Of a stretch of DNA of 60,000 nucleotides, positions 6,051 to 58,832 are shown one piece after another (the stretch's first letter is position 1; every line of letters begins with the position of its first letter). The notes under the pieces were generated by a model. It did no database searches, was not told the origin of the DNA, and was given only the letters and a program-made list of their open reading frames with translations. The DNA lies in NCBI GenBank assembly GCA_051294905.1, contig CM119371.1, positions 24,182,001-24,242,000 of the forward strand, read 5' to 3'. The position numbers and the translations under genes are program-made. Source of the DNA: Botryllus schlosseri. Taxonomy: Eukaryota.

Positions 6051-6199
6051 CGACGAATACTTACATGTTTTATAATAGATAGCTAACCTATACGGATAGA
6101 TTCGCAACAGCTATCGTCACGCTTGCTTGCTCAGCAATCTGAACGTTACATAATTTCATATCCCATAGCTTCAGACCCGAGCGCTCAAATTAGATATAG

Positions 6200-15191: not shown

Positions 15192-15199
15192 CTCTAGAG

Positions 15200-18950: not shown

Positions 18951-18989
18951 AAATATTAATAACTTATCTTAAAGCAAAATTGGTTCTTG

Positions 18990-20453: not shown

Positions 20454-20621
20454 CTTTCCGAGCTGTTGATATGGGACGGGAGGATGACGCCAGATGTCTA
20501 CTGCAACGTTGTAAATATCATCCATATCACGGGATGTTCGACAGTCTTTTTTGGAGACTGCGATTTGACAAAACAGAAGCTGGAATGTTTTGCCGTGACC
20601 GGCACCAAAAATCAGGTATCT
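20454..20621 (+). CDS. LRR exon A1 (56 aa, two RI/NLR-type repeats)
   Basis: ttcag|CTT..TCT|gtgagc, 168 nt, phase 0/0: LSELLIWDGRMTPDVYCNVVNIIHITGCSTVFFGDCDLTKQKLECFAVTGTKNQVS. Confidence 0.85.
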
Positions 20622-20844
20622 GTGAGCTGGAAAAATTTGCTGTTAACATATAAGGTAGTACTTTTTTCCGAAATTAGGACAAGAAAATTTGACGTAGCAG
20701 GTATAAGGAAAATTCGTTTATACGTAATCGCATCGCTCTGTCTATTGGTAATGCCAACTGCACGAGCTTTCGAATAATCAACTAATTGAATGGACCGTTA
20801 CCTGCACTGTAAAACAGTCATTTTGAATACATCTTCTTTCACAG

Positions 20845-21012
20845 CTATCGCAACTGAGAATAGCGGATGCCAAGATGCCTGTAGATGGATATCGCGAAAT
20901 CGCCAATACACTCAACGCCGTCGGTTGTAAAGGGATTCAGTTCGAAAACTGCGAATTGACGAGAGGGAAACTTTCTGAATTCTACTCTGGGTGTAAAGAC
21001 AACGAGTTATCA
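20845..21012 (+). CDS. LRR exon B1
   Basis: cacag|CTA..TCA|gtgagt, 168 nt: LSQLRIADAKMPVDGYREIANTLNAVGCKGIQFENCELTRGKLSEFYSGCKDNELS. Confidence 0.85.
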
Positions 21013-21243
21013 GTGAGTTCGCCTAATTCACTGGAAACGTAGGCTACAATGTGTAGATTACGAGTGGTGCCAGGGCGATCGCGAGCTAGCGGTAAATCAA
21101 AGGGTTCTCTCCCAGATTTTAGTTAAACTCTAGCTAACCTGGGCAACTTGAATCATCACATGCATTCAAAGCTTTTTCCATGAAGATTAAGAGCTTTAAC
21201 GCGTTACTTTATAAGCCCAAGTTTGGTATACAAGGGAAGGACT

Positions 21244-23120
21244 TAGGGATGGTGTAAACATGAGGTTCAAGTAGTCAGCAAATGATACTTATTCAATCAA
21301 TCATTCTAATTGATATAGTAAAAATGGTCGTTGTCTAATGTAATAAATTAAGCGTGTTTTTCGGGATCCATCTGCTCAGAGTCGGACGCCGAATACATTG
21401 TCCGGTCTAGCCTCGACAGTTGAGGCGTAAGCTTACATTACCTTGCAATTCCTCGTCGAAATTGCTCGCAAAGCGACGGGAGATATTTATTTTATGGGAT
21501 TTTTATATCATTTGTTTGCTCCAGTGATACATTTTCTGACGTTTAAAAAGTCAACATGTACTTCAGTATTATGGCATATTGCGACCTGAGTCGTTGCTAG
21601 GTATATTTGTGTACAGTACATTAATATATAACTTCTTTGGCCTCCGCAAAGCTTTCGACACAGTTAACCACAGAATCTTAAGATACAAGCTAGAACACTA
21701 TTGAATCAGGGGTATTGCAGCAACTCTACTTGAAAGCTACCTGGCAAACCGCAAACAATCTGTTAAACTGGGGACATTAAGATCGACTACCAGAGATATA
21801 ACTTGTGGAGTCCCACAAGGCTCAGTAGTTGGACCGACTTTTTTCCTCATTTATATTAACGACATTGTTAATGCATCTTTATTCCGCACAACCCTATTTG
21901 CGCTGATGATACTCACCTCTTCATAATCTCCAACACTGTCAATGATTTGCATGCATCCGTGAATAGGGAACTCCCAAAAGTGTCGAGATGGCTGCAAGCA
22001 AACAAACTAAGCTTGAATGCAGATAAGACCGAGATGCTCCTTTTCAATAATGCCAATCATAGTTTCACTGTGAACATCATCATAAACAAATCTCCATATG
22101 TGACTCAGCAAAATATCTCGGTGTCACCATTGATGCTAAAATGTCTTGGAAGCAGCATATTGAATGCATAATATCAAAACTAGCTCGATGTGTGGGAATA
22201 ATGACCCGTCTGCAATCTTTGGTTTCCAGATCAATACTACGAACCATATATTTTTCTCTTTTCCACTCTCACCTGCAATATGGAATCGTAGTATGGGGAA
22301 GTGCATGCAAAACATTTCTGTGCAGAATTCGAACCCTGCAAAACCGTGCGATACGGCTGATCTCATCTGTACCTTTACGTACCAAACTATCGCCTTACTA
22401 CCGTAAGCACCGAATTTTGCAAGTTGACGACCTATATCGCTTCGAAGTATCAAAAGTCATTCACAAATATTTTTCCTTTAGTTTGCCTCCTGTGTTTGAT
22501 GACTTTTTCATGCCTGTCAAAAATGTCCACTCCCATTACACGAGATCCTCGTCTAAAGGAAATATCTACTTACCCCCGCCCAATAGCATCTTAACTAAGA
22601 GGTCCATCGACTACTCGGGACCTATCATCTGGAATGCATTACCACCACATATCCGTGAATTGCCCTATAATAGATTCAGAAAAGCCCTACTTGATCACCT
22701 CTTATAGTTACACTAACACTGTTGCCCTACCTCGCCCAGACATTGCTTCATTGATCATTTGCTACCATCGTTTAATTTTTCTTCTATTTTATTTTTTTTA
22801 ACTACTGTAACATTTTTTACAGCCAGACTGTTTAGAGTCAAGTGTACCTGTTTGATGCTGGTGATCAGACTAGATGACCTTCACGGTCTAATCGATCATT
22901 CCTATCTAATACCGAATACTGTGCATGCATATTTTCTGTACCACCACCACTGCCGTGTGTTATGTATTTTGGTTTGATGAAAATAAAGACTCTCTCTCTC
23001 TCTCTCTCTCTCTCTCTAGGGTCGGAATTAGCAATGTGACGTCACGTGACGCCATACGGTTCACGTTCGCTTTCACACAGAACCTTTCAAGAAGGTTTGC
23101 GTTCACACGAACCTGCACCC
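21244..23120 (-). mobile_element. TAGGGATGGTGT-type hAT MITE, inverted copy, interrupted by a LINE
   Basis: 21244-21632 and 23018-23120 are reverse-complement matches to parts of the 24429 and 43463 copies. Confidence 0.65.
21633..23017 (+). mobile_element. 5'-truncated non-LTR retrotransposon (CR1/L2 group, Crack/Daphne-like) with (CT)n tail
   Basis: RT motifs LRKAFDTVNHRIL, GVPQGSVVGPTFFLIYIND, FA/DDT (stop and frameshifts), C-terminal SHLQYGIVVWG..LQNRAIRLI..IWNALP, 3'UTR, AATAAA then (CT)n. Confidence 0.9.
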
Positions 23121-24300: not shown

Positions 24301-25158
24301 GTTCCGGAGGCTCCAGTTTGTCGAAAGGGAGGAAACCTCACATGTTTGTGTTGAGGATTTGGCCTGATATCTTGAAAAATAGGATTCAAAACGATCAAGG
24401 TGAGTGGGCACATTAGAGCTCGCTACTATAGGGATGGTGTGAACCTCAGAGGGTTCAGGCTCGTGTGAACGCGAACTTTTTTGAAAGGTTCTGTGTGAAT
24501 GCGAACGTGAGCCGCATGACGCCTCGTGAAGTCATGTTGCTAAAACCAACCCGACGACATTTCTGTGAAGGGATACCTAGCGAGGACTGGGGCCAGATAA
24601 TATCACAATGCTTAAGTTCACGTTTTAAACGTCGCCTAATGTATCAACTGCGACAATCAAATGATATATTAATTCCATATAATTAATATGGTCCGCCGCT
24701 TTGCCAACAATTTCGACGAGGACTTACAAGGTAATTGGCCAGACCGGAAAATGTATTCGGCGTCTGAGTATTGCTACGTTGATATTGAGCAAAGCGTCAT
24801 ACAGGTTTCTATACTTGCTCTCGATATTAACCGATTAACAAGTTATATATCGGTATAACCAACACCCCGATCGCACGGATTTGGTTTTTATGATACAGTA
24901 AACATATGAAGTCATGATTGACCCCGTGCGCCTGCTAGATTTTACCATCAGACAACGATATCAATTCCATTGATTGGTTGAATAAGCATCAATCGCTGAC
25001 TTCGGGTAGTCACTGTAGTGCATTTCGCTGTTGATGTTGTGTGATTGCGGGTAAGTTCATAGCATAGAGTCACTAAATATTCACAAACGGACAGCTGGAT
25101 ATTTAAAGCAAACTTTTGTAACGAAGCAAGTAAAGTATTTAGGATTGTTAAGGTACAT

Positions 25159-28100
25159 TAGGGTTGTTCAAAATTTGGAAAATGTTTGGAATTCTGCGTG
25201 TCCATCGCTTATTCTGTAGATTATTGTTAAAAAACAATAATGGGCTTGAAAGAAGCTCGCAGGAAAGCCGGTAATATTTGTCTAAATGCGTTTGAAAGTA
25301 GCCGTCGGCGAGTGGGCGGGGAATCGATGAAGTGGGCGGGCAAAGAGAAGCCATTAATCCTGATTGGTTGAAGCCGGTAATAATAAGCTAGTGATTGGCT
25401 GAAAGACCGACTTTGTGAACACTGCTGGTAACGATTTTTGCGTGCTGTTGTGCAGTCGTTTCTGTTGGTGGCATTACAGACATGATATATTGCCTTTGTT
25501 AATGTTGTCATCAAGAGTCCATAGTACAACATCGCAACCGCCTAAGGTAATATCTACCTGCAGAAAGTGCTATGTATAGCACAGGTGCTCTCGCTAGTTG
25601 AGATACGAATAAACTAGATGCATGCATATTGCTACCTTCAACCTTTCCAAAAGTTACTGACAGTGAGTGAAACTCAAAAATTTACCACCAGGAGTCAACA
25701 TCTCAGTAGTACTTGTTATGACTGGTCGACATCTCACCCATAAACAGACGCATATTACACTTTTTATTCACAATTGAATGAAGGCGAAAAGCACTATTTA
25801 CAAAAGACATTAAAAAAGTACGTTGCAGATCAGTGTTGCATTGTCAGGCACAAGTTGCAGATTACAGGCTTTTGATTAGAGTTGACTTCCTGCTGTCTCC
25901 AACTGTCTTCCTATGCTGTTCCACAGCTTGAAGCAGACTGTCTCTTTGTTGTTCATTGCCAGTCAAGATTGCAGCATAGTCTGTGCTTAGCTTTACACCT
26001 CGTTCTGCGGCATCATTAACGACTTTGACAGAACTGATGTAGGAGCTCATTCTGGTGTAGGAATCTGATAAGTGCCAAACATCAACCGGTTGAGCTAGCC
26101 ACGCCCCAGAGCATTCAAAAACATCAAATATGTACCACGACTGTGGCCCAATAAAATCAGACAAAGTAGTGTCCTTGTTGATGTGTACAGTTGCATTCAA
26201 CGAGGGCGGGCCTCTCCTGAAACTTGAAGTTCGCTCTACCTGCAGGAGCGTCTTTGCCATATTTTCTCGGGTTTCATTGCTTTCACTCGGCGAAAACAAG
26301 GCATATACAGCGGTTTCCTCCACGATATACCAGTCATGCTTTAAAAGCTTTTGTGAAGCAGCTTTGGAAACTTGTTCATCATGTTCCTTGTAACTCAACA
26401 TGTCCTGGATGAATCTCAAGTCATTACCGGCTGCATCACGACCGATGCTGGAAGCAACCCAGGCAGGGATATAAAAGAGAACTAAAAATAAATTGAAGCG
26501 ATGCAGCAGTTCCACTTCTTCAGATTTGTAATGTAACTGATCAGCCCACATGAACATCTTCTGAGCATACAGAATTGTGCCCATCCATCTTGCATGGTGT
26601 GTTGCACCAGGTTTGTGATGATGTATATCTCCATCTGCACCGAGAAGAGCAAGAGCATTAGTCACACATTGTTTGTAGTCATCCCATGTGAAGAAATCTT
26701 TTCTGGCGAGTAGTAGCTTGAAGTTCTCAACTGTCATTGCTGCTCGTTCTTTAAAGCATATAGGAATAGTCAGAGTCTTGAATTGCTTTTTTCTGTCAAG
26801 ACTGCTCCAGCTCTTCTTAAGGTGGGCAAACCATGTGTTCTCTGGTCCGGTTGTTGCTTTTCCAAATAAACATTTCCAGACGTCTTTGACTACTAGCTCA
26901 TACACATGGTGCCGACACGCATGGTAAAAAACCTTCTTTCCTAGAAGGTCCTCAAGGATCTTCGCTGCACCCTTCTTCCAGCCGCTGTTGCTTGCTGTGG
27001 TGCCAAAAACCAAAGCTGTTACAGCATCTTGTATATCCCACTTTTTAATTATGTCGAAAGTAGTTTCAGCTTGTGTCTGACCTGCCGCATTTTGTATCTT
27101 CTGAATTCCAAGTAGTTTTCCTTCCGAGTATTGAGGTTGACAAGATAGAACAATTGACAAAGCTTCATATCGATTTCCTAATCTATCCTCTGTGAGCTTT
27201 CCATCCCAATGAATGGCAACATGCTGTGGTCTATTTTCGGCAAATTTTTCCAAAATGTCCTGAGATATTTCAGGCGATTTGTTTCCCTGGCTCTCTTCGT
27301 TGAAGATCTTGACAGGGAGAACATGGCTATATCTCCTCCACAAGCCTTAATAAATGGTCCCATCAACATCGTTGTCAGTTACTTGCAATCGATCCAGAGC
27401 TTGGGAAACATGCGTATTTTTCATAATATTTTTAGGTGCCATCAGTTTAATGGATTGGGTCGGGGTGCCAAGTCCAACATCAGCATCATAGTCAGAACTT
27501 GAACTCAAACTGTCACCCTCTTTTGAAGATGACGATGATGCTAAAACAACATAGTCACAACTTGAGTCGTGTGAAACGTTTTCAACAGTTTGATCTGCAA
27601 TGGCTGCTGTTTTCTTTTTGAGGTCTTTAGCCAGAATTTTGTCTCTTCTCAACATTATTGACTGGCGAGATTGCCGCTGATCTTCATAAAATGCAATGTC
27701 TTCAAGCTTTCTTTCATGTGATAGATAAATGTCATTTTTTATTGTTGTTATGGCATCTCTACTTCCAATATCCCACAGCTTGTCCAAATCATCAGTGAAT
27801 TTTGTCCTCTTACCCTTGGGATCACTTTCCTGTTTCGGATTATTCTTCAGATCACGCCATCTTTCGTGCAGGTTTTGAAGTGATCGCACCACATGTGATT
27901 TCTGCATTGTCGCAATTCTCGCCATTTTCCACACTGTCATTACATCATCCACCACCACAGTACATAGTTCATGAGCAGGGGTTGACTGAGGACAATGCTC
28001 TTTCAGATGCAGCAAGTAACTCATTACTTCTCGTATAGTAGGTAATCTCGAGCCACAGATGTAATCGCAAGTATATCCGACCAAGTACTGCTCAGATTTG

Positions 28101-28596
28101 GATCTTGTTCTTCGCTGCGGCATGTGTGCAATCTTTCGCCGTTTTGCCTCTGCCATGACTGCACTATTGTTGCTCCAAAGCATAAACTACTGCTATCGAC
28201 TCTGAAGCATTCAAAGAACACGTGTTACAGTACTACTAATGACTCATCAACACACAACGCGCTTGTACAGAACCACAACCGCTACTAACAGACTCTACCT
28301 CAGCAAAACAGACTTTCAATTTAGTAAAGCGAAGCTCCCGAATCCGAGTCAGCTGTTGCAGTAATCAGTGAAGCTTAGCCGATTACCCAATCAAGAACCG
28401 TTGTTTCGTGATTGCCCGCCTCTGCTGTCGGTTGCCCGCCCACTCTTCAACAACGACTTTCAAACGCATTTAGACAAATGTTAGAGGCTTTCCTGGGAGC
28501 TTCTTTCAAGCCCATTATTGTTTTTTAACAATAATCTACAGAATAAGCGATGGACACGCAGAATTCCAAACATTTTCCAGATTTTGAACAACCCTA
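25159..28596 (-). mobile_element. full-length hAT DNA transposon (hATm-like), copy 1
   Basis: ~140-bp near-perfect TIRs starting TAGGGTTGTTCAAAAT; perfect 8-bp TSD AGGTACAT (25151-25158 and 28597-28604). Confidence 0.95.
25862..28156 (-). pseudogene. hAT transposase of copy 1 (frameshifted)
   Basis: Motifs HWDGK, F(G)TTASNSG, ACRHH, PGATHHARWM, VVNDAAERG; frameshifts near 27370 and 27270; FDTT Asp replaced by Gly. Confidence 0.9.
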
Positions 28597-29008
28597 AGGT
28601 ACATGCTCGTTTAGTGTTGCTTTTTCATGCTGCTAGCGCTGTGCATAGAGTGACCCGCAGGTAAAATGCAATAAATTTCAACCAAAGATGATATAATGAA
28701 GTTAAAATTGTAATATATGACAAAAGTTCACAGTACAGAATCTACCAAGGCTCGTTTGTGAACGTGAACCTCTAAATTTCTGAGGTTCACACACTGAACG
28801 CGAACGTAAACCTTACGTTCACACCACCACTGCTTGCTACCTTATGCTATGTTGCTTCAACTTGTGTTCCGTTTTTTTTTCGATTTACCATTATCTGTCT
28901 CGCGACTAATCGGGATTCGTAACTCCTCTAGTAATCCATAGTAACAGTATCATGCCAATGCTGTGAGTGAATCACGGCAATCCACAGAGCTACCGAAAGT
29001 AATCCATA

Positions 29009-31295
29009 GTCGTTGGTGAAGAGTGGGCGGGCCACCGTCAGCAAAGTTGCGAAAAGGCGGGCAATCACGAAAGCACGGTTCGTGATTGGATAATCGGCTG
29101 AGCTCCAATGATTACTGCAACAGCTGACTCGGATTCAGGTGCTTCGCTTTACTAAATTGACAGTCTGCTTTGCTGAGGTCGAGACTGTTAGTAGCGGCTT
29201 TGGTTCTGTACAAGCACGTTGTGGGTTGATGAGTCATTTAGTAGTACTGTAACATGTGTTCTTTATAGGCTTTAGAGTCGAAAGCAGTAGTTTATGATTT
29301 GGAGCAACAATATTGCAGTCATTGCAGAGGCAAAACGGCGTAAGATTGTACACATGCCGCAGCGAAGAACAAGATCCAAATCTGAGCAGTACCATACTTG
29401 GTCAGATATACTTCCGATCATGTATGTGGCTCGAGATTACCTACTATACGAGAAGTAATGAGATAATTTATGCATCTGAAAGAGCATTGTCCTCAATCAA
29501 CTCCTACTCATGAACTAAGTAATGTGGTGGTGGATGAGGTAATGACAGTGTGGAAAATCGCGCGGATTGCGACAATGCAGAAATTTCATGTGCTGCGATC
29601 ACTTCAACACCTGCGCGAAAGATGGCGTGATATGGCCACCTTAAGAAGAGCTAGATCAGTTTTGACAGAAAACAGCAATTCAAGACTCTGACTATTCGTA
29701 TATGTTTCAAAGAACGAGCAGCAAGGACAGTTAATATCTTCAAGCTACTACTGACCAGAAAAGATTTCTTCACACGGGATGACTACAGACAATGTGTGAC
29801 TGATGCTCTTGCTCTTCTCGGTGCAGGTGAAGATATACATCATCACAAACCTGGTGCGACCCACCATGCAAGATGGATGGGCACGATTCTGTATGATCAG
29901 AAGATGTTAATGTGGGCTTATCAGTTACATTACAAATCTGAAGAAGTGGAACTACTGCATCGCTTCAATTTGTTCTTAGTTCACTTTTGTATACCTGCCT
30001 GGGTTGATTCCAGCATCGATCGTGATGCAGCCGGTAATGACTTGAGATTAACCCAGGACATGTTGAGTTACAAGGAACATGATGATCAAGTTTACAAAAG
30101 CTGCTTTAAAAAGCTTTTAAAGTATGACTGGTATATCGTGGAAGAAACCGCTGTATATGCCTTGTTTTCGCCGAGTGAAAGCATTGAAACCCGAGAAAAT
30201 ATAGCAAAGACGCTCCTGCAGGTAGAGCGAACTTCAAGTTTCAGAAGGGGCCCAGACTCGTTAAGTGCAACTGTACATATCAACAAGGACACTACTTTGT
30301 CTGCTATTATTGGGCCATAGTCGTGGTATATATTTGACCTTTTTGAATGCTCTGGGGCGTGGCTAACTCAACCGGTTGATGTTTGGAACTTATCAGATTC
30401 CTACACCAGAATGAGCTCATACATCGGTTCTGTCAAAGTCGTTAATGGTGCCACAGAAGAAGGTGTAAAGCTAAGCACAGACTATGCTGCAATGTTAACT
30501 GACAATGAACAACTAAGAGACAGTCTGCTTCCAGCTGTGGAACAACATAGGAAGACAGTTGGAGACAGCAGGAAGTCGACTCTAATCAAAAGTCTGTAAT
30601 CTGCAACTTGTGCCTGACAATGCAACACTGATCCTGCAGGTACTTTTTTAATGTCTATTGTAAATAGTGCTTTTTGCCTTCATTCAATCGTGAATAAAAA
30701 GTGTAATATGCGTTTGTTTATTGGCGAGACGTCGACTAGACATAACAAGTACTACTGAGATGTTGACTGCTAGTGGGAAATTTTTGATTTCCACTCACTG
30801 TCAGTAGGTATTGGAAAGGTCGAAGGTGGCAAGATGCATGCATCTAGTTTATTCGTATCTCAACTAGCGAGAGCACCCGTGCAATGCATAGCAACACTGT
30901 TATACACATTCTGCAGGTAGATAATAACTGTGGGGATTGCAATGTTGCACCATGGACTCTCGATCACAACATTGACAAAGGCAATATATCATGTCTGCAA
31001 TGCCACCAACAAAAACGACTGCACAACAGCACACAGAAATAGTTACCAGCAGTGTTCACAAAGGCGGTCTTTCAGCCAATCAGTAGCTTATTATTACCGG
31101 CTTAAACCAATCAAGATTATTGGCTTCTGTTTGCCCGCCCACTCGCAGACAGCTACTTTCAAACGCATTTAGACAAATCTTCCCGGCTTTCCTGCGAGCT
31201 TCTTTCAGGCCTATTATTGTTTTTTTATCAATAATCTACAGAATAAGCCATGGATACGCAGTATTCTAACATTTTCCAAATTTTGAACAACCCTA
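29009..31295 (+). mobile_element. older, 5'-truncated and internally deleted copy 3 of the same hAT
   Basis: Ends TTTTGAACAACCCTA; ~1-kb deletion at ~29632 joins RERWRD to HLKK; stops and frameshifts; visibly more diverged than copies 1 and 2. Confidence 0.9.
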
Positions 31296-31688: not shown

Positions 31689-31856
31689 GTTTCGAAACTG
31701 TCGATATGGGATAGTACGATGACTTCGGATGTCTATAGTGATGTCGCGGCTATAATCAGTATCACGGGATGTTCGACGGTATTTTTAGGGAACTGCGATT
31801 TGACGAAACAGAAATTGGACAATTTCAGGACGACTGGCAAGGAAAATCAAATATCT
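31689..31856 (+). CDS. LRR exon A2
   Basis: ttcag|GTT..TCT|gtaagc, 168 nt: VSKLSIWDSTMTSDVYSDVAAIISITGCSTVFLGNCDLTKQKLDNFRTTGKENQIS. Confidence 0.85.
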
Positions 31857-32132: not shown

Positions 32133-32300
32133 CTCTCAAGTCTACAAATCATCGATGTCAAAATGCCAGCCGAAAGTTACGGTGAAATCGCAATTACACT
32201 CAAGTCCATCGGTTGCAAAGAGATAATGTTCGAAAACTGCGAATTGACGAGACGGAAGCTCTCTGAATTCTACACTGGATGTAAAGACCACCACGTATCT
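32133..32300 (+). CDS. LRR exon B2
   Basis: ttttaaag|CTC..TCT|gtaagt, 168 nt: LSSLQIIDVKMPAESYGEIAITLKSIGCKEIMFENCELTRRKLSEFYTGCKDHHVS. Confidence 0.85.
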
Positions 32301-39789: not shown

Positions 39790-40159
39790 ATATCCACCAA
39801 CCACCATAGCACATTACAAAGTAGACTAAGTGCATTTGTATCGAATGCAAAAATAATTGTTTCAGAGCAGATCATCACGGATGTACCGTCTCATATTTGC
39901 TAGTATAGTTAGTAATGCATTCCCACCTCAAGGAAATGGTTTTATACAGAGCACTGAGTCGCTTATACACACTCGATAATCTTTGAACCATAGAAATTCA
40001 CTGACTGAATATTTGTCACTCTATGTTCGTTCGATGATTTGCATGGACTCTCTCGATTATTTTAGGTGACTACGCGAAATGAGTGTCAGACATTCCAGCG
40101 AGCAATTATATAATGGTCTCGAATAATCACTGCTGACAAGTTGCATCATTATCATTCAG

Positions 40160-40327
40160 CTTGCCAAGCTGTCGTTATGGGATTGTACGATGACGTCAGA
40201 TATCTACGGTAACGTTGCGGATATTATCAGCATCACGGGATGTTCGACAATATTTTTTGGAGAATGCGATTTGACGAAACAAAAGTTGCAAAGTTTCACG
40301 GAAACCGGCAAGAATATTAAAATATCT
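40160..40327 (+). CDS. LRR exon A3
   Basis: ttcag|CTT..TCT|gtaagt, 168 nt: LAKLSLWDCTMTSDIYGNVADIISITGCSTIFFGECDLTKQKLQSFTETGKNIKIS. Confidence 0.85.
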
Positions 40328-40475
40328 GTAAGTTACAAATTTCTCTGATTGATTTGATTGGTTTTGATATGAATAATTCGTATTATGAAAAGAAGTACCA
40401 AGAAGTGAATCGAACTTAAACTATATACAGTAATTGTAAATAAATCGGATATGATGATTATATCTTATTTCATAG

Positions 40476-40643
40476 CTCTCCAAGCTCCACATAAGCGATG
40501 TCAAAATGCCCACTGAATGTTACCGCGAAATCGCAACTACACTCAAGTCCATCAGTTGCGAAGAGATCGTGTTCGGAAACTGTGAATTGACGGATCTGAA
40601 GCTTTTAGAATTCTACACTGGATGTAAAGACAACGATCTATAT
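40476..40643 (+). CDS. LRR exon B3
   Basis: catag|CTC..TAT|gtaagt, 168 nt: LSKLHISDVKMPTECYREIATTLKSISCEEIVFGNCELTDLKLLEFYTGCKDNDLY. Confidence 0.85.
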
Positions 40644-42872
40644 GTAAGTTTAGTTAATGTACCGAAAACGTGCATTGTTTGTATCACGAGTGATCGCTAA
40701 GTTTTCATTTGGTTTATCATTCCTACCCGCATATCACACAATTATATTATTCGCAGAATGTCATGCGTTTGACGAGTGATATTTACAGTACTTATTCCGG
40801 AGATTGGTAGATTAAAGTGACTTCTGTGCTGGAAAAGTAGTCAGAAATCCTTCCAAATAATGAGCACACAACACAAATTGACAAAATGAATTACTGAACA
40901 ACTCGTGGACTATTGCAATGCGTTTGATCGCTGCAACCAAATCCCGCATGCTAGAGACCGTTCGAAAATGCCGTTGACTGTATTGCAGTTTGCAACGCAC
41001 TGATAAGAATTGCGATGATAGTTGGGGGTAGCCCAGTAAATAAGAAGGGTAAGTTAAAATGGAATTAGTATAGAGAGCTATGCAAATTTGTTCTGGATAC
41101 GCGGCCAACGATAATACAGCTTATACACTACATCGTTGGATTTCCTAGATTAAAATGCGATACAATCATAATTTCATTGAATAAGTTAATGACGACAAGA
41201 ACTGTGGGATGTAAGAAGAATAAATCAGCAAAATCGTAGAAGTTATGCTTATTTATTTCTCGACCTTTTTGACACTGGAAATGATAGATAATAAGAATTG
41301 GAATCTTCTCGCGCTCTCTAATTCAGTATCCCTGCAAAGAAACATTTCTACTATTCTGAAACTTGACTCATATATCAGTTTTCAGTGCGTGACAGCCTCT
41401 TGAAATTCCCGACTATGACGTACCGTTTGAACCGTGTGGTGTTTCATACATTTTCCGCACAATTCAATCCAAGGAAGTTTTACGAATAACATCATAAGCT
41501 ACTGCAAAGATTAGCATATATACGGGACTGCAATATTTTTATTTCAATATACGAGCTCGGAAGATGTTGATGAAATATAGTTTACTAGAGATGTTGCAAA
41601 CATTTATTTACGTTGGTGTACGGCTTGGAATCCGTGAGCTACGTGTCCACAAACTAATTTTGTATGAAGTACCAGTAGTTCCCAATAATCTTAGCAATAG
41701 TCGTAAAAATTCTTGAGATGGTAACTGCACCGCGATGTCAGCAAAGGAAGTTTAACCCAAACGTAAGAGGTAAATTGAGATGTAATTAATTTTTAACAAT
41801 TTCGATAAAGTTGCTTGACATATCACACCATAGTAATTCCTAATAATTAAATACCTCACTTTCGGTACTTCTACGTATTGGAATATGCATATAAATATGC
41901 CTGTACAAGTAAAAGGTTAGCTCTGTGTCATAACGAAGAACCAGTGTATTTGGGTATGTTTTGCAAACTAATTATTTGACTTTCTGGGTAAGCTAGGGTA
42001 ACATAAAATAAGCGTTCATTCAATACTTGCCGTAGATTCTTAACACTTGCGGCGCAAATTCACTAGGGTTCCACTATAATATCACGTACGAGTTGTTGGT
42101 ATTACTATGTCACGTGATAAAACACTCCGTTCGATCAATAACTACTATGTCGCTAAATTTTAACGACACAAATACCACTCCTGCTCCGCCGATAACGCTG
42201 ATAACGCCAGGTGCAACAGTAATATATGCAACTACCATTACTTTTGTCAAATATACATCAGTTTACTTTGATGTAATTTCCGGGTCGCTCGGCTAAGAAA
42301 ACGATGGTGACTCATCTGAAAAGTAGTGTTGTGATGTGCGCGTATGCTGGCAGTTTTGGTACGCTCATCGAATCGACTTTGATCTGCGATATTGCTACAA
42401 CAGTCGGCCATGTTGCTGCAAGCGAATTCGCCTTGTAACCTCGTTGTCAATTATATTTATATTTAAATACTTATGTTTATGACAAGATAGAACAGGGTGA
42501 AGGGCTGCATGCGATCGTCACCGCAACTTTTTGGGATCCCTAAATGCAAAAATATTTTGAAAACATCGCATGTATATTAGAGAATCAGAATGTCGTTAAA
42601 CACCGGAATTTCCCTGCTATTTCCAACTACGAATTAGACATGTAGAGGCCAAATATACTAAGGCACTTCATTGATTATTTCCTATTTGACTCAGTTGCTC
42701 AATCTGATGAGTAAATCGTAAACGTAAATCGTAATCGCCAGGACATCGCTACGTGTATTGCTAATTCCTGTTTCGCAACCTTTCTTAAACAAAAGAGTAA
42801 ATAAACAATAATCCAATTTAGAGTATACAGTTGCAACGCAATCGGTAATTAAAAAGACTGTTTATTTTGTAG
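40476..42872 (+). repeat. second tandem duplication unit (B exon plus following intron), paralogous to 42873-47769
   Basis: Collinear once the three MITEs at 43463, 44913 and 45624 are removed from the second copy. Confidence 0.85.
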
Positions 42873-43040
42873 CTCTCAACTCTGTCTATAATCGATGCCA
42901 AAATGCCTGCTGAAAGTTTTCGTGAAATCGCAATCACACTCAAGACCACATGCTGCAAAGAGATGCAGTTCGAAAACTGCGAATTGACGAGTCGGAAGCT
43001 GTTTGAATTCTACACTGGATGTAACGACAACGATCTATCG
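42873..43040 (+). CDS. LRR exon B4
   Basis: tgtag|CTC..TCG|gtaagt, 168 nt: LSTLSIIDAKMPAESFREIAITLKTTCCKEMQFENCELTSRKLFEFYTGCNDNDLS. Confidence 0.85.
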
Positions 43041-43462
43041 GTAAGTTTATTTAGTGTAGAGAAAACGTGTACTGCTTGTATCATGAGTGCCCGCTAAGTT
43101 TTCGTTAGGTTTCTACTTCCTACCCGCAGATCACGCAATAATACTAATCCCAGAATATAATGTTTTAGACGAGTGATATTGACATTACTGTACTTATTCC
43201 GCGGATGGGCAGATCTAAGTGACTTCTGTGCTTGAAAAGCAGTCACAAATCCATCCAATAATGAGCACACAACACAAAATTGACAGAATGAATTACTGAG
43301 CGACAGGTGGACTCTTGTAATGCTTTTAATCACTGCAACCAAAGCCCGGATGGGGGGAACAGTTAAAAATGCAATTGAATTTATTGCATCACACTGATCA
43401 GAATTGCAATGATAGTTAGAGGTAGCCCAATAAATTAGACAAGTCAGTGAAAATGAAATTAG

Positions 43463-44452
43463 TAAGGGTGGTGTGAATCTCAAAGGTTCAGGTCCGTGTG
43501 AACGCGTACCTTTCTGAAAGGTTCTGTGCGAACGCGTACCTCATGACGTGACATGATGGTATATTGCTGATTGCAACCCTACATTTCAGTGAAGTAGTAG
43601 TCTATATTAATGTACACGATACCTAGTGACGACTCTGGCCACATAAATGCCAACTGCTGAATTAATATATTGACGTTTTAAACGTCGCCAAATGTATCAA
43701 CTGGGGCAATCGAATGATATAATAATCCTATAAAATCAATATCTTCCGTGGCTTTGCCAACAATTTCGACGAGGACTTACAAAGAAATGTTAGCTTACGC
43801 CTTAACGGTCTAGGCCTGTCTGGGCAATGTATTCGGCGTCTGCGTATTTCTACGTTGATATTGAGCAGAGTGTACAACGGGTTTAAATACTTGCTACCGA
43901 TATCACCCCATTACCAAGTTATACAGCAGTAGCCAACACCCCAGTCGCATCAATTTGGTTTTTATGGTACCGAAAAAATAGGAAGTCAGATTGAACCCGT
44001 ATGTCTGCTTGATTTTCTTTACATCAGACAACGATAGCAACCTCATTGATTGGTTGAATAATCAACATTCGCTGACGACATGTATAGTCTATTTCGCTCT
44101 TGATGTTGTGTGATTGCGGGTCAAGCTCACAGTAAAGAGTAACTACCTATTCATAAACGGAAAGCTGGATATTTCGAGCAATTGTAACAAAGCTAGTAAT
44201 TTTTGGTGATTGCCAAGGTACATGCTTGTTTAGTATTGATTTTGTATGCTGCTATAGTGCCGTACGTAGAGTGGCCCGCAGTTCAAATGCAATAAATTTC
44301 AACCAAAGATGTTTTAATGAAGTCAAATGTGTAAAATATGAAAATGTTTCACGGGGCAGAACCTACCAAGGTTCGATTGTGAATGTGAACCTTTACATTT
44401 CTGACATTCCCACACACCACGCGAACTGATCCTCACGCTCACTCAATCCCTA
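43463..44452 (+). mobile_element. ~990-bp hAT MITE (uninterrupted relative of 24429)
   Basis: Ends TAAGGGTGGTGTGAA / CTCACTCAATCCCTA, near-TSD GAAATTAG / CAAATTAA; empty site at ~41061 and ~59232; holds a single AGGTACAT at 44216. Confidence 0.75.
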
Positions 44453-44912
44453 CAAATTAATATCAAGTGATATGCAAATCCGTTCTGAATATACCACCAC
44501 CAACAATATTGCTTGTACACTACGTTGTTGGATTTCCTAGATTATAATGCGAAACAATCATAATTTCATTGAAGAAGGTAATCACGAAACGAACTGAGTG
44601 GTATATGAGAAGAATAAATGAGCAAATTCGTAGACATGACGCTTATTATTTGTCGTCATTTTCTCGACATTTTTGTTACTGGAAAGGACATATAATCAAT
44701 ATTTGAATCATATTGTGCTATCTAATTAGGTACCTCTGCATAGAAAAACATCTACTATTCTAAAACTTGATTCAGATATCAAATTTTATTGTGTGACAGC
44801 CTACTGAAATTCTTGACTATTAGATACTGTTTGAATCGTGTGCTGTTTCATAAATTCTTCACACAGCTGAACCTGCGTGAGGACGTTTTGCGAATAGCAC
44901 CATAAGCTACAT

Positions 44913-45316
44913 TAGTGTTACCATACGTCCTCTTTTAGAAGGATTTGTCCTCTTTTTTCAAAAAATTGAAATTGTCCTCGGAGGACGCTTAAATGTCCTT
45001 TTTTTTAAACTGGTCCTTTTTTTTACAAAAAGTATTAAAATACCATCAAAAACTCGACTCCGACGCAGCGAACGTGTATAACGAAGGTCGGGTCGAAGTG
45101 TTGACCTTTTTTGGCAACACCACAGACTTATCGTAATTATGCGGGTGACTCGGGATTCGGGTCGTGTCTAAGTGATGACTTTTATATTTTTTTTAGTCAA
45201 CGCATGTACTATTGGTCGAAAACCTTCAAAATTAACCATTTTCTTTTCCGTTATTACAAATTTCATAGATTGTAAAATGGTTCCTCTTTTTCGGAACTCA
45301 AAATATGATAACCCTA
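44913..45316. mobile_element. hAT MITE with TAGGGTTACCATA-type TIRs
   Basis: TAGTGTTACCATA / TATGATAACCCTA, GTCCTC subterminal repeats; absent from the paralogous intron at ~41500. Confidence 0.7.
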
Positions 45317-45623
45317 GCAAAAATGGGGGGTTGGAATATACTATTCATTTACGATTTCTGAACATCTTGATGAAAACTTAATTTACTAGAGGAGATGATG
45401 ACAGCATTTATCCTCGTTAGTGCTCGGCAATGTTGCTTGACATATCACGCCATAGTAATTCCTATTAATTCAATAACTCACTATGGTTTCTTCTACGTTC
45501 TTGGACTATGCCTCTATATCCCTCCCTACAGTTACAAGGTTAGCTCCGTCTAATAAAACAGAACCAGTGTATTTGGGAATGTTGTGCAAGCCAATTATTC
45601 GGCTTTCTGGCTATAAGCTAGGG

Positions 45624-46863
45624 CAGGGGTGGGCAAACTACGGCCCGCTGGCCGCATGCGGCCCACGACACCATTTTGTGCGCCCCGCGAAAGGCTCGAG
45701 AATTGTATCTAAAATACTGAAAAAAAGCACAGTAAAAATATAATTTCTGCAGGGAATCGATTAAACTTTTTCTCATTATAGTTCACGATGATAAATATAA
45801 GTTATATTCTGACTAGTCCATTTTTATTTCATTGTTGGTGTGATAGCTCGATCTCAAGGCCCACGCATTTTAAAAGGTTTTAATTGCTAAACATTACAGA
45901 AATTCAAAACGGGAATGACTCTTGGATCACAAGTGTAATTTTATATTGGCCACTCCAGCAAGTTTATATTACTTTTAATGCTGTACTTGGAAAAACCGAT
46001 TGGCGCGTGTGAAAGATTCGCTCTCTCGTAGAAGTCTTTATATTTATAACATCTGTATACAGCATATTTGAAGCTAACATGGTTGTGACGCTGTCAGCAT
46101 TGTGTGTCCTGGACTTAAACCAAAAGTAGAATCAGCAAATCAATAAGCAGATCACTGCTCACAGATTCAAATCTTCCTACCGTTCTAAGAATCGGGACAA
46201 GCGACTTTCATCCTTAGGTTTAAAAAATGGTTATATTGACATTGGCCAGCAACTTATGAAATCTCGCCAATGTTTCTGACGCTTCTACCATATCTTCAAA
46301 TCAATGGTTGGTTGGTTTTAAATAATTTATAATTTATAATTTATAATTTCCACATCCTCACTATATAATCAAACACCAATATTGTGCTTTGGTTTATAAT
46401 CCCAATTTTATATAGTGCGGTAGGCGAATGGATTTAGATGTTGAATGCTCGGTCCACGAGTGTTTTTCTTTGCGAACTAGTTACTGATGAGGACTAAAAC
46501 AACAATTCGCGCTCCGCGCGATTTGCCTATGGTTCATGCTTATTGCGCTGTCTATTGTCCATATTTCATATTTGATAATTCGCTCGTCTACAGCTATTAC
46601 CTTCAATGCCATCAAACTATCCGTTAGGATTGCTAGCAATCGGATTCCGCTCTTGGATATTTTTTGATATCAAGTTGAAGGAGGTGCAAAATTTTTCACT
46701 ATGATGAGGGGGGCGTGTCTGATAAAGTATAAGCACCACTACTAGATGATTATATAACAATATTGCTTTTTTGGCTAATAATCTCAATTTAATATGGTGC
46801 GGCCCGCGAATGGATTTATATGTTTAATGCGGCCCGCAAGCCCAAAAGTTCCCCCCCCCCCTG
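45624..46863. mobile_element. hAT-Charlie-like non-autonomous element
   Basis: CAGGGGTGGGCAAACTACGGCCCG .. GCGGCCCGC..CCCCCTG; perfect TSD AGCTAGGG; empty site at 41991. Confidence 0.85.
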
Positions 46864-47769
46864 AGCTAGGGTAATATACTGTAAGCATTGATTCATAATA
46901 TCTGCTATGACTTCTTGGCACTTGCAGCGCAAAGTGACTCGAGATCCATTATAATTTGATTCACGCATGCATATAACACCTTGATCGATCATTAACTATT
47001 CCTGCACTAAATTTTAAAGAAACTACTACCACACTAGTTTGGCCAATAACGCTGATCACATGCGGGGACAAATGTTATAAATTAACCAGTATACAACTAC
47101 TGTCACTTTCGGCAAAATATGAATAAGTTTACTTTGAGTGAATTTCCCGACTCGTGCGTCTATAAGTAAATCAATGCGACTCATATGAAGAGAAGTGTGG
47201 GATCTAAACGTCTGCTGGGAAATTTGGTAGGCGTGGCGAATCGACATTGTTCTTCGATATTGCTACAGTAGTCGACCATCTTGCTGTGAGCGAATTCGCC
47301 TTGTAACCACGTTGTCAATTATATATATATATATGTATAAATACACATGTTTATGGCGTGAGAGAACAGGGTGAAGGGGTGCATGCGTTCGTCACAACAG
47401 CTTTTAGGGATCGCGTAATACAAAAATATTGAAGAATTGTCGCAGACTTTCATTATATACCCTAATTTCACTACTATTTCCAACTACGAATTAGACAGCT
47501 CCAGGCGCAAATATAGTAAGACCATGGTCATTGGATTGACTATTATCCAATTTAACCAAATTGATTCTGAAAGTTTAGAGTGCATTTTTTATCAAATTGC
47601 TCAGCCTAATAATTAAATCATAAACGTAAACCGTGATCGCTGTCACATTGCTACGTCTAGTGGTAATTCATGTTTCGCGACATTTCTAAAATTAGGAAGT
47701 ATAGAAACAGTCATCTACTCTACAGAGTTGTAAGGTAATCGGTAATTGTGAAGAACGCTTATTTTGTAG

Positions 47770-47937
47770 CTCTCAAATCTGATCATTATCGATGCCAAAA
47801 TGTCTGCTGAAAGTTTTCGTGGAATTGCAATCACACTCAAGACCACATGTTGCAAAGAGATTAATTTCAGAAACTGCGAATTGACGGCACGCAAGCTCTC
47901 GGAATTCATCAATGGATGTAAAGACTACCATCTATCT
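47770..47937 (+). CDS. LRR exon B5
   Basis: tgtag|CTC..TCT|gtaagt, 168 nt: LSNLIIIDAKMSAESFRGIAITLKTTCCKEINFRNCELTARKLSEFINGCKDYHLS. Confidence 0.85.
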
Positions 47938-49364
47938 GTAAGTTAGAATAATGTTCCTGAAAGGCGAATTATTTAGATTGGGTGTGAAAATAAGGGCGAT
48001 CGTGATCTGTCGGTAGATTGCGAGATCCAATCGAAAGTCACAAAACTATACTGATAGTAGGTCTTCTTGGGTGTGAGGGCAATATTGACTGGAATTTGCC
48101 ATTGCTCACGGGTTTGGTAGACCATAGGATGACTGCTGCATCTGTAAAGTAGACAGCGAATCACCCCCTGGTCAGTATCGGAAAAATGAATCGAAGCAAG
48201 TTCAATATATCCCAGAGGTATTTGAATATGTGCTTGGAATTGAATGGCATGCAAATTCATTTCAATATGCAGCAACCATTGATCCGGTCAATACATGATA
48301 TGTATTATACATGGTATGTATTATTTAATACATTAAAGTCTGGTACAACCGAAATTTCAGGATTTGTATTGCAAAGGCTAGCAATAACTGCAGAGTCTGG
48401 CCAAGAAAATGTCGTCTAGCGATAATTGCAAGAAAAGAAAGTATGAACAGGAAAATGGAACGGTAACTAGAAACGTCAATACGAAACCAAACAACAAAAC
48501 TTTGTCACGAGTTACCCAACGGAAACGGATTTACGGAGTAATAAAATTACCGAGCTGAAACATTCCTTACATTCTAATCAGAACTTAAAGGAACTACTCC
48601 GCACTGCTTTGTCGTCATATCAGTCAGATTTCATACACATGGAAGCCCTGGTGGAGACGAACCATATAACCACACAATATTGAACTAAATTCGGAAGCCT
48701 AGATTTCATTTGACGAAATATATCCGTATTCATAATTTTGTGTTGTGGCTATTTTAACGATAAGATTCTTGATTTGCGGCACACGCATGAAGAAGGTCTT
48801 TCCACCCTGATATATATATATATATATATATTTACCTATTAGACTACTTTGGTGGACAGTCCTGTTTTGAAGCAGTTGGGCGACAATTATCGCCAACAGA
48901 AGGAGACAAGCTAGGCGTCTGAAAATAACTCGATTGGTTTTGGAATATCGATTCCGCGCTTCGTCACTGGTGATTTGCGGTTTATATCGCAGCGTTTAGA
49001 ATATACACGAAATGTCCTCCAACTGCGGTCGCCCTAATTTTTCCCAACTTTTGCAATATCTAATAGACCACTTTAGTGGACATTTGTTACTTAGGGAGAC
49101 AATTCGCCATTTTGAATTACCAGACCATGACCATTGCTGTTACTGAACTAAGGTGGACATTGACGTCGTATTATATGACAAGGTTCGGGAACCAGTTTCG
49201 TCAAAAGAGTCATTTACCAATGACAATCACTTTTGACGTCACTATTTGAAATCCACGACGTCATCCTTGTACGATATCGATGATCGCGATACATAATTCG
49301 CCGTTTGTTTGTTTTTTATTCATGGTGTTTTGACTAATTTGGTAGTTTTAGAGTATGCCTATAT

Positions 49365-55725: not shown

Positions 55726-58348
55726 GTTTGTTTGCTTTCTCTCTTTCTCTCTCTTGAGCATTAGTAAGGTGAATCCTTTCTTATTTGCACGGTTAGAGCA
55801 ACAACCCTCCTTGGTTTATCTGGGCTACTCCTCCGACAAAGACATGGATTTGCGAATGCCAGGAAAGCGAACACTGAATTGCTAGGACAAGCAACTGAAA
55901 CACAGCTGAAGAGAAAAAATGGAAGCCAATCACCTTCACGATTAGGCCGAGATGGATGCTATAGATTAATAATAACCGTGCTTGGTAGTTTTAGCATTCT
56001 CTTCTCTGTTCAATATGTCGCAATGCATCTTTAGTACCGCATTGCACATTGTCTGGCTTGAGCGGAAACAATAATTTGAGCTAAATTAGAAATAAAAGTC
56101 GGGGGTTCGCTGAGGCTCGCGACGGTCCAAAAGGGGTCCGCAAAGACATGAAAGGTTGAGAATAACTGACACAAGGTACATGCCTTACGCTCGCAACTGA
56201 CAGAGCATCTTAAAGCTGTTTTGACACAAGCAAATCAACGACCTATCAGCTCGATATATTGGGTGCGGGAAATACTACAGAATATTTATCATGCTATAAC
56301 CAATACATATATTTGATGGAGTTGTATTAAGGTAAATCAGGGATCCTTTTTCACAATATGTATCACGAGTGTTAAACAACAAAATTTAACGATGGTATAG
56401 TGCCCTTTCGCCTTTGCCAAGAGCTAATCAGGGCCCAAATAATAGGAGTCGCCATTAAAATCGTACGATCCGCGGTGTCTACCAAGATCGCAACTAGAAC
56501 TTATGTCGAGTCATCACAATGGTAGTCAGCATTTTTTATGTCGTCATTTTTTAAAACAGTGTATAAAGTCTTAAAATCCCTATATATACTGGAATGGTCT
56601 AAACTGAGTAAATCCTAAACAAAAACTATCATGTATGCAAAGCGGTGTCATTTTATACACGCGAAAAGTGGAAGAAAATCCCCCCTATTGATTGTCGACT
56701 TAATGCCACTTTTCAAAATACGGGGTTTATACAGGGGTCAAAATGTCGCCATTGTAACTCGAAATTCCTGCTACTTCATGACTTGATTTCTTTTGGAAGG
56801 GACAAATGAGGGACTAATAAGCGTGGTCCCAAACGGATTTGCTTAACAGACGATAGCAACCGAGGGAAAAATGTCGCCAAGAATTAGGGGGACACAAAAT
56901 TGTCTCCCAATTTTTTTCGTCCCCCAACTGCTACAAAAATAAGTGCGATTGTCTCCCGAAGTAGCCTAATAGGTAAATATATATATATATTCGTATAATA
57001 CTTATATGCTGTGAAGGAACGGAGTTCAGGTGAGGATATGTTCGTCACAACAATTTTTAGCCTTCCCCAAATTGAAAAGGGTTGAAGAACGCTTGGAAGA
57101 GCACCGATTTAGAGCGTTAACCCCTATTCTCAAAAATACTCAAAACATTGCATCTACATTACAAAGTCCCTTAAAAACAGGAATTTACCCATTATTTTTC
57201 TAATATAATTTCGGCAGATCATTATGTATTACCGTTCTTGAATTTACGTGTCTAATAACTAACCCAATTACAAATCCAAACGATCTTACGATATCAGATT
57301 GCCTTGTCCAAGCACTCATTTTTATGTTAGACAATACGCAGTCAATCAAATGCTGAAATTTTTTCACTTCGATTTGTCGACAAAATGACTGTAAACAATG
57401 AATAAGTGAGCGACTCTTGGACTCTTCTAATGCTTTTGATCACTGCAACCAAATCCCACAGGTATTATTGCAAGGCACCGATAAGAATTGCAATGATAGT
57501 TAGGGCAGACCCGTATATCCGACGAGTAAGTGAAAATGACAAGCCATCGAGTGGCATGGAAATAAGTTCTGAATACGCCGCAACCGCCAATACGTATTGT
57601 ACACTAAATTGTTAGATTTCCCAGATTAAAGTCCAATCCCGCAATTTCACTGAAAATGCCTTTGACGAATAATTGCGGGGGTGGGGAGAATACATGAACA
57701 AATTCTCAAACATGATGTCAATCTAATGTGCAGGAAACTTATCGATAATGAATATCAGTTTTCGCCAATTTGTTGATATATTTGATATTAGAATTCCTAT
57801 ATCATCGAAAATAGAATTATTTCTTGCTGTCGACGGCGAATATCCCTGCACTCTAAAAGCATCTACTGTCTATATTAATAGTTACAATGTTCTGGTATCA
57901 GTTTGCATTTTGCTACAGCCAAAGGTGGTCAAATTAGGAGTAGAAACGCAAAAAATCGACTCAAGTAGAACACGCACAAAAGAATGAAGTCCTACATTGG
58001 GCAATCCAGTATCGAACCGTGCATTTGTATCGTATGCGAAAAAAATTGTTTTGGAGCAGATCATCACGGATGTACCGTCTCAAATTTGCTAGTCTAGTTC
58101 GTAATGCATTCTCACGTCAAGGAAATAGTTTTATACGGAGCATTGAGTCGCAAGTACACACTCGATAATCTTTCAGCGATAGAAATTCAGCGACTGAATA
58201 TTTTTCACTGTATTTTCGTTCGATGATTTCCATGGAGTCTCTCGATTATTTTAGGTGACTATGCGAAATGAATGTCGGACATTCCAGCGAGCAATTATAT
58301 CATGGTCTCGAATAATCACTACTGACACGTTAAATCATTATCATTCAG

Positions 58349-58516
58349 CTTGCCAATCTGTCGTTACGGGATGGTACGATGACGTCAGATATCTATGGTA
58401 ACGTTGCGGATATTATCAGCATCACGGGATGCTCGACAATATTTTTTGGAGAATGCGATTTGACGAAACAAAAGTTGCAAAGCTTCACGAAAACCGGCAA
58501 GAATATTAAAATATCT
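58349..58516 (+). CDS. LRR exon A4
   Basis: ttcag|CTT..TCT|gtaagt, 168 nt: LANLSLRDGTMTSDIYGNVADIISITGCSTIFFGECDLTKQKLQSFTKTGKNIKIS. Confidence 0.85.
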
Positions 58517-58664
58517 GTAAGTTACAGATTTTGCTGATTGATTTGATTTGTTTTGATATGAATAATTCGTATTATGAAAAGAAGTACCAAGAAGTAAATC
58601 GACCTTAAACTATATACTGTAATGGTAAATAAATTGGATATGATGATTACATCTTATTTCCTAG

Positions 58665-58832
58665 CTCTCGAAGCTCCACATAAGCGATGTCAAAATGCCA
58701 GCTGAATGTTACCGCGAAATCGCAACTACACTCAAGTCCATCAGTTGCAAAGAGATAGTGTTCGAAAACTGTGAATTGACGAGTCTGAAGCTTTTTGAAT
58801 TCTACGCTGGATGTAAAGATAACGATCTATCT
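58665..58832 (+). CDS. LRR exon B6
   Basis: cctag|CTC..TCT|gtaagt, 168 nt: LSKLHISDVKMPAECYREIATTLKSISCKEIVFENCELTSLKLFEFYAGCKDNDLS. Confidence 0.85.

Follow-up and report, generated by a model that had tools for sequence, protein, structure and literature searches.

A probable NACHT-LRR gene built from tandemly duplicated 168-nt exon cassettes in the tunicate Botryllus schlosseri

Two leucine-rich repeats (LRRs) encoded by one symmetric exon, an arrangement in which the reading frame survives the loss of any exon, have already been described for NLRP3 and other NOD-like receptors (NLRs); in the sections of that source on exon structure, NLRP3 exons 5–9 all measure 171 bp, code for 28+29 residues, lie in a common frame and undergo alternative splicing (PMC10950545). 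Large, clustered and lineage-specific families of NACHT-LRR genes are described for sea urchin, amphioxus, sponge and cnidarians in the relevant passages of two papers, one of which also reports ascidian NLRs as lacking CARD (PMC9505182; PMC11508797). The present analysis concerns a 60,000-nt stretch of the genome of the tunicate Botryllus schlosseri (assembly GCA_051294905.1, contig CM119371.1, here C1; C1:24182001-24242000), termed the window, which contains ten homologous LRR exons of equal length, termed cassettes. The ten exons probably represent cassettes 2–11 of the 14-cassette LRR region of a single NACHT-LRR (NLR-type STAND) gene of about 88 kb. Tunicates are the closest living relatives of vertebrates, and their NLR repertoire is barely described in the literature searched: full-text searches, with subscription journals and supplements outside their scope, returned no tunicate NLR census and no description of such a family, and neither a review of tunicate immunity (PMC5465252) nor a colonial-ascidian genome paper (PMC12448946) mentions NLR, NOD-like, NACHT or leucine-rich.

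The window DNA is AT-rich (about 40% GC), eukaryotic and without long genes. Its ten homologous + strand exons are each exactly 168 nt (56 amino acids), are preceded by a pyrimidine-rich tract and AG, are followed by GT, and are free of stops in the homologous frame; the donors read GTAAGT in seven cases and GTGAGT, GTGAGC and GTAAGC in one case each. When the ten cassette peptides were compared with the whole window by tblastn, ten matches scored 112–119 bits and the remainder 21.2 bits or less, indicating that the ten-exon pattern is not due to chance. A nucleotide profile applied to both strands of 260 kb (the window widened by 100 kb on each side) at E<=10 recovered these ten and three more just past the window end, and no degenerate cassette copies; one divergent cassette lies upstream. 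All 13 main-array cassettes are two-repeat exons of 168 nt in phase 0/0. An earlier note, made from the letters of the window alone, had reported ten stop-free AG/GT exons of 168 nt in phase 0/0 that together encode 560 residues in 27+29-residue repeats. The exons and their positions were confirmed by checks of splice sites and frame and by tblastn, the phase by a conceptual splice that stays open across the ten, and the total by ten units of 56 residues; the 27+29 spacing fits the strands predicted at residues 3–7 and 30–34 of the unit (see below). The main-array cassettes are as follows, positions past the window end being window-equivalent, i.e., in the window numbering continued beyond its limits.

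20454..20621, + strand: cassette A1, with two LRRs, opens the A-type series of the array; AG/GT, open frame, profile E=2e-29, 64.5% identical in amino acids to the first A-type unit of a paralogue
20845..21012, + strand: cassette B1, after a 223-nt intron following A1; splice sites, tblastn, profile
31689..31856, + strand: cassette A2; splice sites, tblastn, profile
32133..32300, + strand: cassette B2, after a 276-nt intron following A2; splice sites, tblastn, profile
40160..40327, + strand: cassette A3, the first exon of a duplicated four-exon block; splice sites, profile, self-comparison
40476..40643, + strand: cassette B3, after a 148-nt intron following A3; splice sites, profile, self-comparison
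42873..43040, + strand: cassette B4; splice sites, profile; block 84% (intron) and 91% (exon) identical to the block at window-equivalent 61693
47770..47937, + strand: cassette B5; splice sites, profile; pairs with the cassette at window-equivalent 65199
58349..58516, + strand: cassette A4, a copy of A3; 95.8% nucleotide identity to A3, dN/dS 0.35
58665..58832, + strand: cassette B6, a copy of B3; 92.9% nucleotide identity to B3, dN/dS 0.49
window-equivalent 61693-61860, + strand: cassette B7; protein profile
window-equivalent 65199-65366 (C1:24247199-24247366, 5.2 kb past the window), + strand: cassette B8; protein profile
window-equivalent 67609-67776, + strand: cassette A5; protein profile

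A profile of the ten units matched only 51 of 1.84 billion representative proteins at E<=0.001, which indicates that the repeat type is lineage-restricted. The best matches are proteins of Styela clava annotated as uncharacterized, including the following.

XP_039248824.1 (LOC120326569), Styela clava: 2508 aa, 31 repeat stretches
XP_077976009, Styela clava: 1383 aa, 22 repeat stretches
XP_077976001.1 (LOC120336943), Styela clava: 1650 aa, 9 repeat stretches

Pfam NACHT was detected in four of 13 scanned matches (P0001, P0004, P0011 and P0028), together with a Death domain in P0004 and the NOD2 winged helix (NOD2_WH) in P0001 and P0004; the more distant matches P0009, P0030 and P0032 carry LRR_6. 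Closer relatives of the cassettes were sought in a collection of 15 billion sequences, which held no protein more than 50% identical to a cassette; a word-index search of longer proteins with cassette B6 and the NACHT exon described below also returned nothing, which is weak evidence only.

An AlphaFold2 model of P0003, a Styela protein of eight units, made without an alignment, reached pLDDT 91.1 and pTM 0.85 and comprises 16 strand/helix repeats, with one strand and one helix per ~28 residues. In a Foldseek comparison of this model with PDB, the top matches were NLRP2, ribonuclease inhibitor (RI), NLRP3, NLRP9 and NLRP14 (E 3e-10 to 3e-7). Exon A1, folded alone with a ten-row alignment, gave a strand at 3–7, a helix at 13–26, a strand at 30–34 and a helix at 40–49, at low confidence (pLDDT 65). 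These models suggest that each cassette would encode two RI-like LRRs, the fold evidence being strong for the homologue and suggestive for the window sequence.

The division of the cassettes into types A and B, proposed earlier, is borne out by identities of 29–36% between the types and 59–64% within type A. Ten columns are invariant across the cassettes (L4, D8, M11, C28, C36, L38, T39, K42, L43 and F46), and the ratio of nonsynonymous to synonymous change (dN/dS, Nei-Gojobori) is 0.20–0.61 in all 21 within-type pairs. A scaffold was defined independently of the window exons, from 73 Styela repeats, by taking the 19 of 56 positions that vary least, and was used to classify the amino-acid differences between four recent exon pairs: 2 of 76 scaffold comparisons differ, versus 34 of 148 at other positions (Fisher p=3e-5). 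Neutral evolution at buried positions, which the earlier note had named as evidence that would speak against its reading, is thus not what is seen, as recent changes avoid the scaffold. The most variable positions are the same in the window cassettes and in the Styela repeats (3, 5, 7, 30, 32 and 34) and fall within, or right next to, the two strands of the unit (4–7 and 30–33 in the P0003 model; 3–7 and 30–34 in the A1 model). The concave face of RI-like LRR proteins is the ligand-binding side. Taking sequence and models together, scaffold residues are kept while residues of the predicted concave face vary, and the ten window exons are intact and under constraint.

The gene to which the array is assigned would span C1:24164841-24252526 (window-equivalent ~-17.2 kb to +70.5 kb). 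Its features outside the cassettes, and the part of the window upstream of A1, are the following.

window-equivalent -17168..-15936, + strand: NACHT exon, a 411-codon open frame; tblastn with Styela proteins, E 1e-48
window 1..20453, + strand: part of the ~26.6-kb intron between the divergent first cassette and A1, swollen by mobile-element sequence; colinear with a paralogue
window-equivalent 70338-70523, + strand: cap exon, 60 codons and then a stop, with a phase-0 acceptor; the single open reading frame (ORF) picked in 260 kb, E=4e-7

The NACHT exon matches Pfam PF05729 (E=1.8e-12, 47.9 bits versus a cut-off of 26.7), its translation includes a Walker A motif, GEAGAGKTT, and a Walker B motif, LLLVIDGLD, and a Met stands ~80 codons ahead of Walker A, as in XP_039248824. 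It lies 37 kb upstream of A1 on the same strand. Colinearity was assessed with one paralogue, the NACHT exon of which is at C1:24818046: both loci have, in order, the NACHT exon, four short exons of the helical domain, a divergent first cassette, an A-type cassette and a B-type cassette, and the four helical exons align without indels. Ahead of the first A-type cassette, the intron measures ~26.6 kb here versus ~2.7 kb in the paralogue, and no cassettes or NLR exons were found in window positions 1..20453. At the other end, the cap exon was sought with a hidden Markov model built from six Styela C-termini; it lies 11.5 kb downstream of the ten window exons and shares 42% identity with the C-terminus of P0007. 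A regular expression written by hand around 'GW' had not helped to locate it. The proposed order of the gene is therefore the NACHT ATPase exon, four helical exons, the divergent first cassette, A1 B1 A2 B2 A3 B3 B4 B5 A4 B6, B7 B8 A5 and the cap. The upstream NACHT exon, the NACHT-bearing homologues and the RI/NLRP-like fold of a homologue all support the earlier suggestion that the cassettes encode the RI-like LRRs of an NLR-type protein.

In genome-wide searches of the 495.5-Mb, 219-contig assembly, at least 143 cassette matches were found, none with an internal stop (E<=0.001; 150 of 304 candidates scored), and at least 45 matches to the NACHT exon, five with internal stops (E<=1e-10; 101 of 191 candidates scored). 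At least eight NACHT exons with 72–100% identity are located at 23.45–24.82 Mb of C1, all on the + strand and each followed by cassettes; further groups of NACHT exons occur on C3, C5, C7, C9, C12, C14 and C15. The putative gene belongs to a 1.5-Mb cluster of at least eight tandem paralogues, all on one strand, and to a larger, lineage-restricted birth-and-death family.

The growth of the array can be traced in its introns. The A-to-B introns are 148–276 nt, and the other introns between window cassettes are 2.2–10.7 kb. Self-comparison of the DNA revealed a block of four cassettes and its copy.

39830..48226, + strand: source copy of the block A3-B3-B4-B5, repeated ~18.2 kb downstream as A4-B6-B7-B8 (58019 to past the window end)

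The self-BLAST offsets of the four exon pairs are 18189, 18189, 18820 and 17429 nt. The segments 39830-41658 and 58019-59827 are 90% identical, and the three alignable intron parts of the block copies are 90%, 84% and 82% identical. Alignment of four duplicated blocks gave no gap events in exons, versus 4, 9, 7 and 2 in the flanking introns, and exon identity exceeded intron identity in each (94.3 vs 90.1%, 91.1 vs 83.9%, 83.9 vs 81.8% and 82.1 vs 68.6%). These gap counts, and the transposon copies in the long introns, agree with the clean exons amid indel- and transposon-rich introns that had been noticed earlier. At the level of the DNA, the comparisons show that the array grew by tandem duplication, first of A-B pairs and then of the ~18-kb four-cassette block, and that the long introns were filled with transposons after array growth. 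Expansion of the solenoid by exon duplication, also proposed earlier, is supported by the same self-comparison and recurs in paralogues. In three other genes of the cluster the A-B block is 87–89% identical, introns included, to both copies, which means that intragenic and whole-gene duplications are of similar age, or that copies have been homogenised. Paralogues also contain equal-scoring cassettes spaced by 5.6 kb (C1:24441678-24458775) or 6.3–6.6 kb (C7:28565679-28582235); identical or near-identical scores at such regular spacing suggest very recent tandem amplification of multi-cassette units.

Several mobile or repetitive sequences were observed in the introns. Two 3.44-kb copies of one element, 97.7% identical, occupy two introns (window 25156-28597 and 36355-39790), with a third copy between them that is older, partial and inverted (29008-31304). 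The element has inverted ends of ~190 nt (25153-25343 versus 28602-28412, 90%) and minus-strand ORFs of 494 and 279 aa without a Pfam match, for which a language-model search gave a weak lead to hAT-related DUF4371/FAM200 proteins (score 0.77–0.85). Within the 26.6-kb intron, window 4086-5699 on the minus strand is a 537-codon open frame without a Pfam match, the nearest language-model clusters of which are Plavaka (KDZ-type) transposases (score 0.91–0.95; a lead only); a 59/128-nt tandem array at 5618-6043 adjoins it. In the intron after B1, broken reverse-transcriptase frames on the + strand (21705-22707; weak RVT_1 matches, E 5e-4 and 6e-3) mark a decayed retroelement. Dispersed repeats are shared between introns (33040-33494 with 48361-48812, 91%; 24429-25158 with 43463-44223, 73%), and an imperfect (GTATG)n-like microsatellite at 34217-34309 is the source of 'MVWYG' pseudo-ORFs in the ORF list. 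No Rfam family reached its gathering score in the window. About 57 kb upstream of the window lies an unrelated neighbouring gene, an XK-related ORF of 343 codons (L013:745-1773, + strand; Pfam E=8e-6, 25.5 bits versus 24.8).

A number of observations weigh against assigning the ten exons to one NACHT-LRR gene, or against its being functional. None of the ten exons matches a Pfam LRR family even at E<=10, nor do the close Styela homologues P0001–P0005 at E<=0.001; a sequence search of PDB chains with P0003 returned nothing; and the confident model is that of a Styela protein, the repeats of which are only ~30–35% identical to the window units, and not of the window's product. The linkage of the NACHT exons to the LRR array is deduced from colinearity and the open frame. 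The earlier note had suggested that NACHT or death-fold exons be looked for in the flanks: the NACHT exon is present (47.9 bits), but a Pfam scan of the 137 + strand ORFs (55 aa or longer) in the 53 kb upstream (-70 kb to the NACHT exon) revealed no exon for a death-fold, CARD or TIR domain, and upstream tblastn matches to Styela N-termini, used to seek a Death-domain exon, all had E>1. Any ligand and pathway are purely conjectural, by analogy with other NLRs. In addition, this copy is damaged at two points outside the window. The divergent first cassette (C1:24175730-24175889, 6.1–6.3 kb upstream of the window) is 160 nt, versus 168 nt in the paralogue, owing to an 8-nt deletion in a GATT-repeat context that shifts the frame, and joining all inferred exons gives a broken frame with a stop at codon 663. 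In cassette B8, AT replaces the GT donor and serine the otherwise invariant C36; this cassette is probably dead.

The remaining parts, namely the ten window cassettes, B7, A5, the NACHT exon, the four helical exons and the cap, are sound. Joined without the first cassette, the exons give 4,314 nt (1,438 codons, 19 exons) with no stops, and without both the first cassette and B8 they give 1,382 codons, again with no stops; as every cassette is in phase 0/0, skipping these two leaves the frame uninterrupted. The gene copy would thus be either expressed with both defective cassettes skipped or a very young pseudogene. The 'live gene' of the earlier note therefore stands as far as the ten window exons are intact and constrained, and falls short in that the first cassette is frameshifted, the B8 donor is lost and the frame is open only if the first cassette is skipped.

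Possible, although not the favoured outcome, is that this copy became a pseudogene very recently within a birth-and-death NLR cluster and that its cassettes are intact only for lack of time since the frameshift. The deletion, with its stop at codon 663 if the first cassette is included, and the loss of the B8 donor would be expected of such a copy; the family does have pseudogenes, at least five of the 45 NACHT-exon matches having internal stops; and the introns are bloated (26.6 kb versus 2.7 kb in the paralogue). However, the NACHT exon, helical exons, cassettes and cap are open and phase-compatible over 1,438 codons, and changes that arose after the internal duplication still spare the scaffold; the defective first cassette can be skipped without loss of frame, and its deletion could be allelic.

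The full reading of the earlier note, that a live gene produces a multitude of receptor isoforms, whether through regulated alternative splicing or through cassette recombination, is unlikely. The uniform length and phase of the 13 main-array cassettes would keep any subset in frame, an open frame in this copy needs defective cassettes (the first cassette and B8) to be skipped, and variability is concentrated on the predicted binding face; skipping of the 171-bp exons of NLRP3 is documented in the part of the source devoted to it (PMC10950545). On the other hand, donors are near-consensus in all ten window cassettes (seven GTAAGT), with no hint of regulated weak sites, and in the sole homologue cluster that lists several isoforms, that of a Styela protein, the four annotated isoforms (X1–X4) are set apart by a single residue or an alternative truncation at the 3' end, and none skips a cassette. 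Symmetric exons are, moreover, a by-product of growth by exon duplication and by themselves no proof of use. A related and quite improbable idea is that the cassettes serve as a splicing toolkit fed by tandem cassette duplication, in which cassettes that are damaged or serve as alternatives would be left out or selected, and a single locus would supply several horseshoes that differ in length and surface; if true, the sister group of vertebrates would have a germline-encoded means of diversification, possibly used for pathogen sensing or self/non-self recognition.

It is very unlikely that the array forms an LRR-only gene, or stands as an orphan, separate from the NACHT exons upstream. The 37 kb between the NACHT exon and A1 would allow it, and the Styela proteins P0002, P0003 and P0005 have the same repeats without NACHT; yet the exon order matches that of the compact paralogue, all eight NACHT exons of the cluster have same-strand cassettes after them, phases agree across the gap, and no start-codon exon of an independent gene was identified. 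The idea that the cassettes are donor segments for somatic receptor assembly, as in the variable lymphocyte receptors (VLRs) of lamprey, deserves almost no credence, for although many similar LRR cassettes are arrayed here and near-identical tandem cassette units occur in paralogues, each of the ten has its own AG acceptor and GT donor and stands in transcription order between ordinary 5' and 3' exons, which is the signature of splicing and not of copy-choice assembly, and the repeats are RI-like, not of the VLR type.

If the ten exons do belong to a single NACHT-LRR gene, its protein would, by likeness to other NLRs, be a cytosolic sensor. The LRR arc might fold back on the NACHT module and hold it inactive; binding of a ligand or partner at the variable concave face would then release NACHT, and the released module would undergo nucleotide-dependent oligomerisation and signal. 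As no effector domain was found, signalling would need an adaptor.

The locus has consequences for how such genes are counted. Because the repeats are missed by standard LRR models, domain-based censuses would score genes of this kind as 'NACHT only' and undercount NACHT-LRR receptors. The two-LRR symmetric exon design of NLRP3 is present, at 168 nt, in a non-vertebrate chordate, and the frameshifted and donor-less cassettes offer a concrete case for whether skipping rescues or diversifies receptors. Should the gene turn out to be a young pseudogene, or an NLR with ordinary, constitutive splicing, the result would amount to routine annotation of a fast-evolving immune gene cluster.

Among known systems, the Styela genes LOC120326569 and LOC120336943 carry the 56-residue double repeat of the window, with a NACHT domain and NOD2-type winged helix ahead of it, and a similar C-terminal cap. 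They belong to another species and differ in sequence (identity ~31% in the NACHT exon and ~30–40% in the repeats); LOC120336943 has an N-terminal Death domain, whereas none was found at the window gene, and both are without a described function. Like NLRP3 and other NLRPs, as depicted in the sections of the source on their architecture (PMC10950545), the putative window gene would have NACHT followed by a RI-like LRR horseshoe with two repeats per one-frame exon, and NLRP2, NLRP3, NLRP9 and NLRP14 are top structural matches of the Styela P0003 model. Unlike in NLRP3, the exons are 168 nt instead of 171 nt and two cassette types alternate, and orthology is not implied; unlike in the NLRPs, the upstream scan revealed no PYD or other death-fold exon, Pfam LRR models fail to recognise the repeats, and introns reach ~26 kb. 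RI itself is likewise an alpha/beta LRR protein whose repeat lengths alternate, and RI of mouse, human, bovine and chicken is among the best Foldseek matches of P0003 (E 3e-9 to 3e-6, TM ~0.46–0.52), but it has no NACHT module, its sequence identity is 10–13% and its curvature differs (root-mean-square deviation 9–10 A over the whole arc). The absence of CARD from ascidian NLRs, as stated in the passage of the source that treats them (PMC11508797), agrees with the scan of ORFs upstream of the window gene. Like the expanded NLR repertoires of other invertebrates, the family is large, clustered and lineage-specific; it differs from them in its tunicate host and in having a repeat type of its own. 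Overall, the locus is of a known kind, that of clustered, fast-evolving NLR genes with modular LRR exons; what is new is the host lineage, the 168-nt A/B cassette pair, the Pfam-invisible repeats and the size of the gene.

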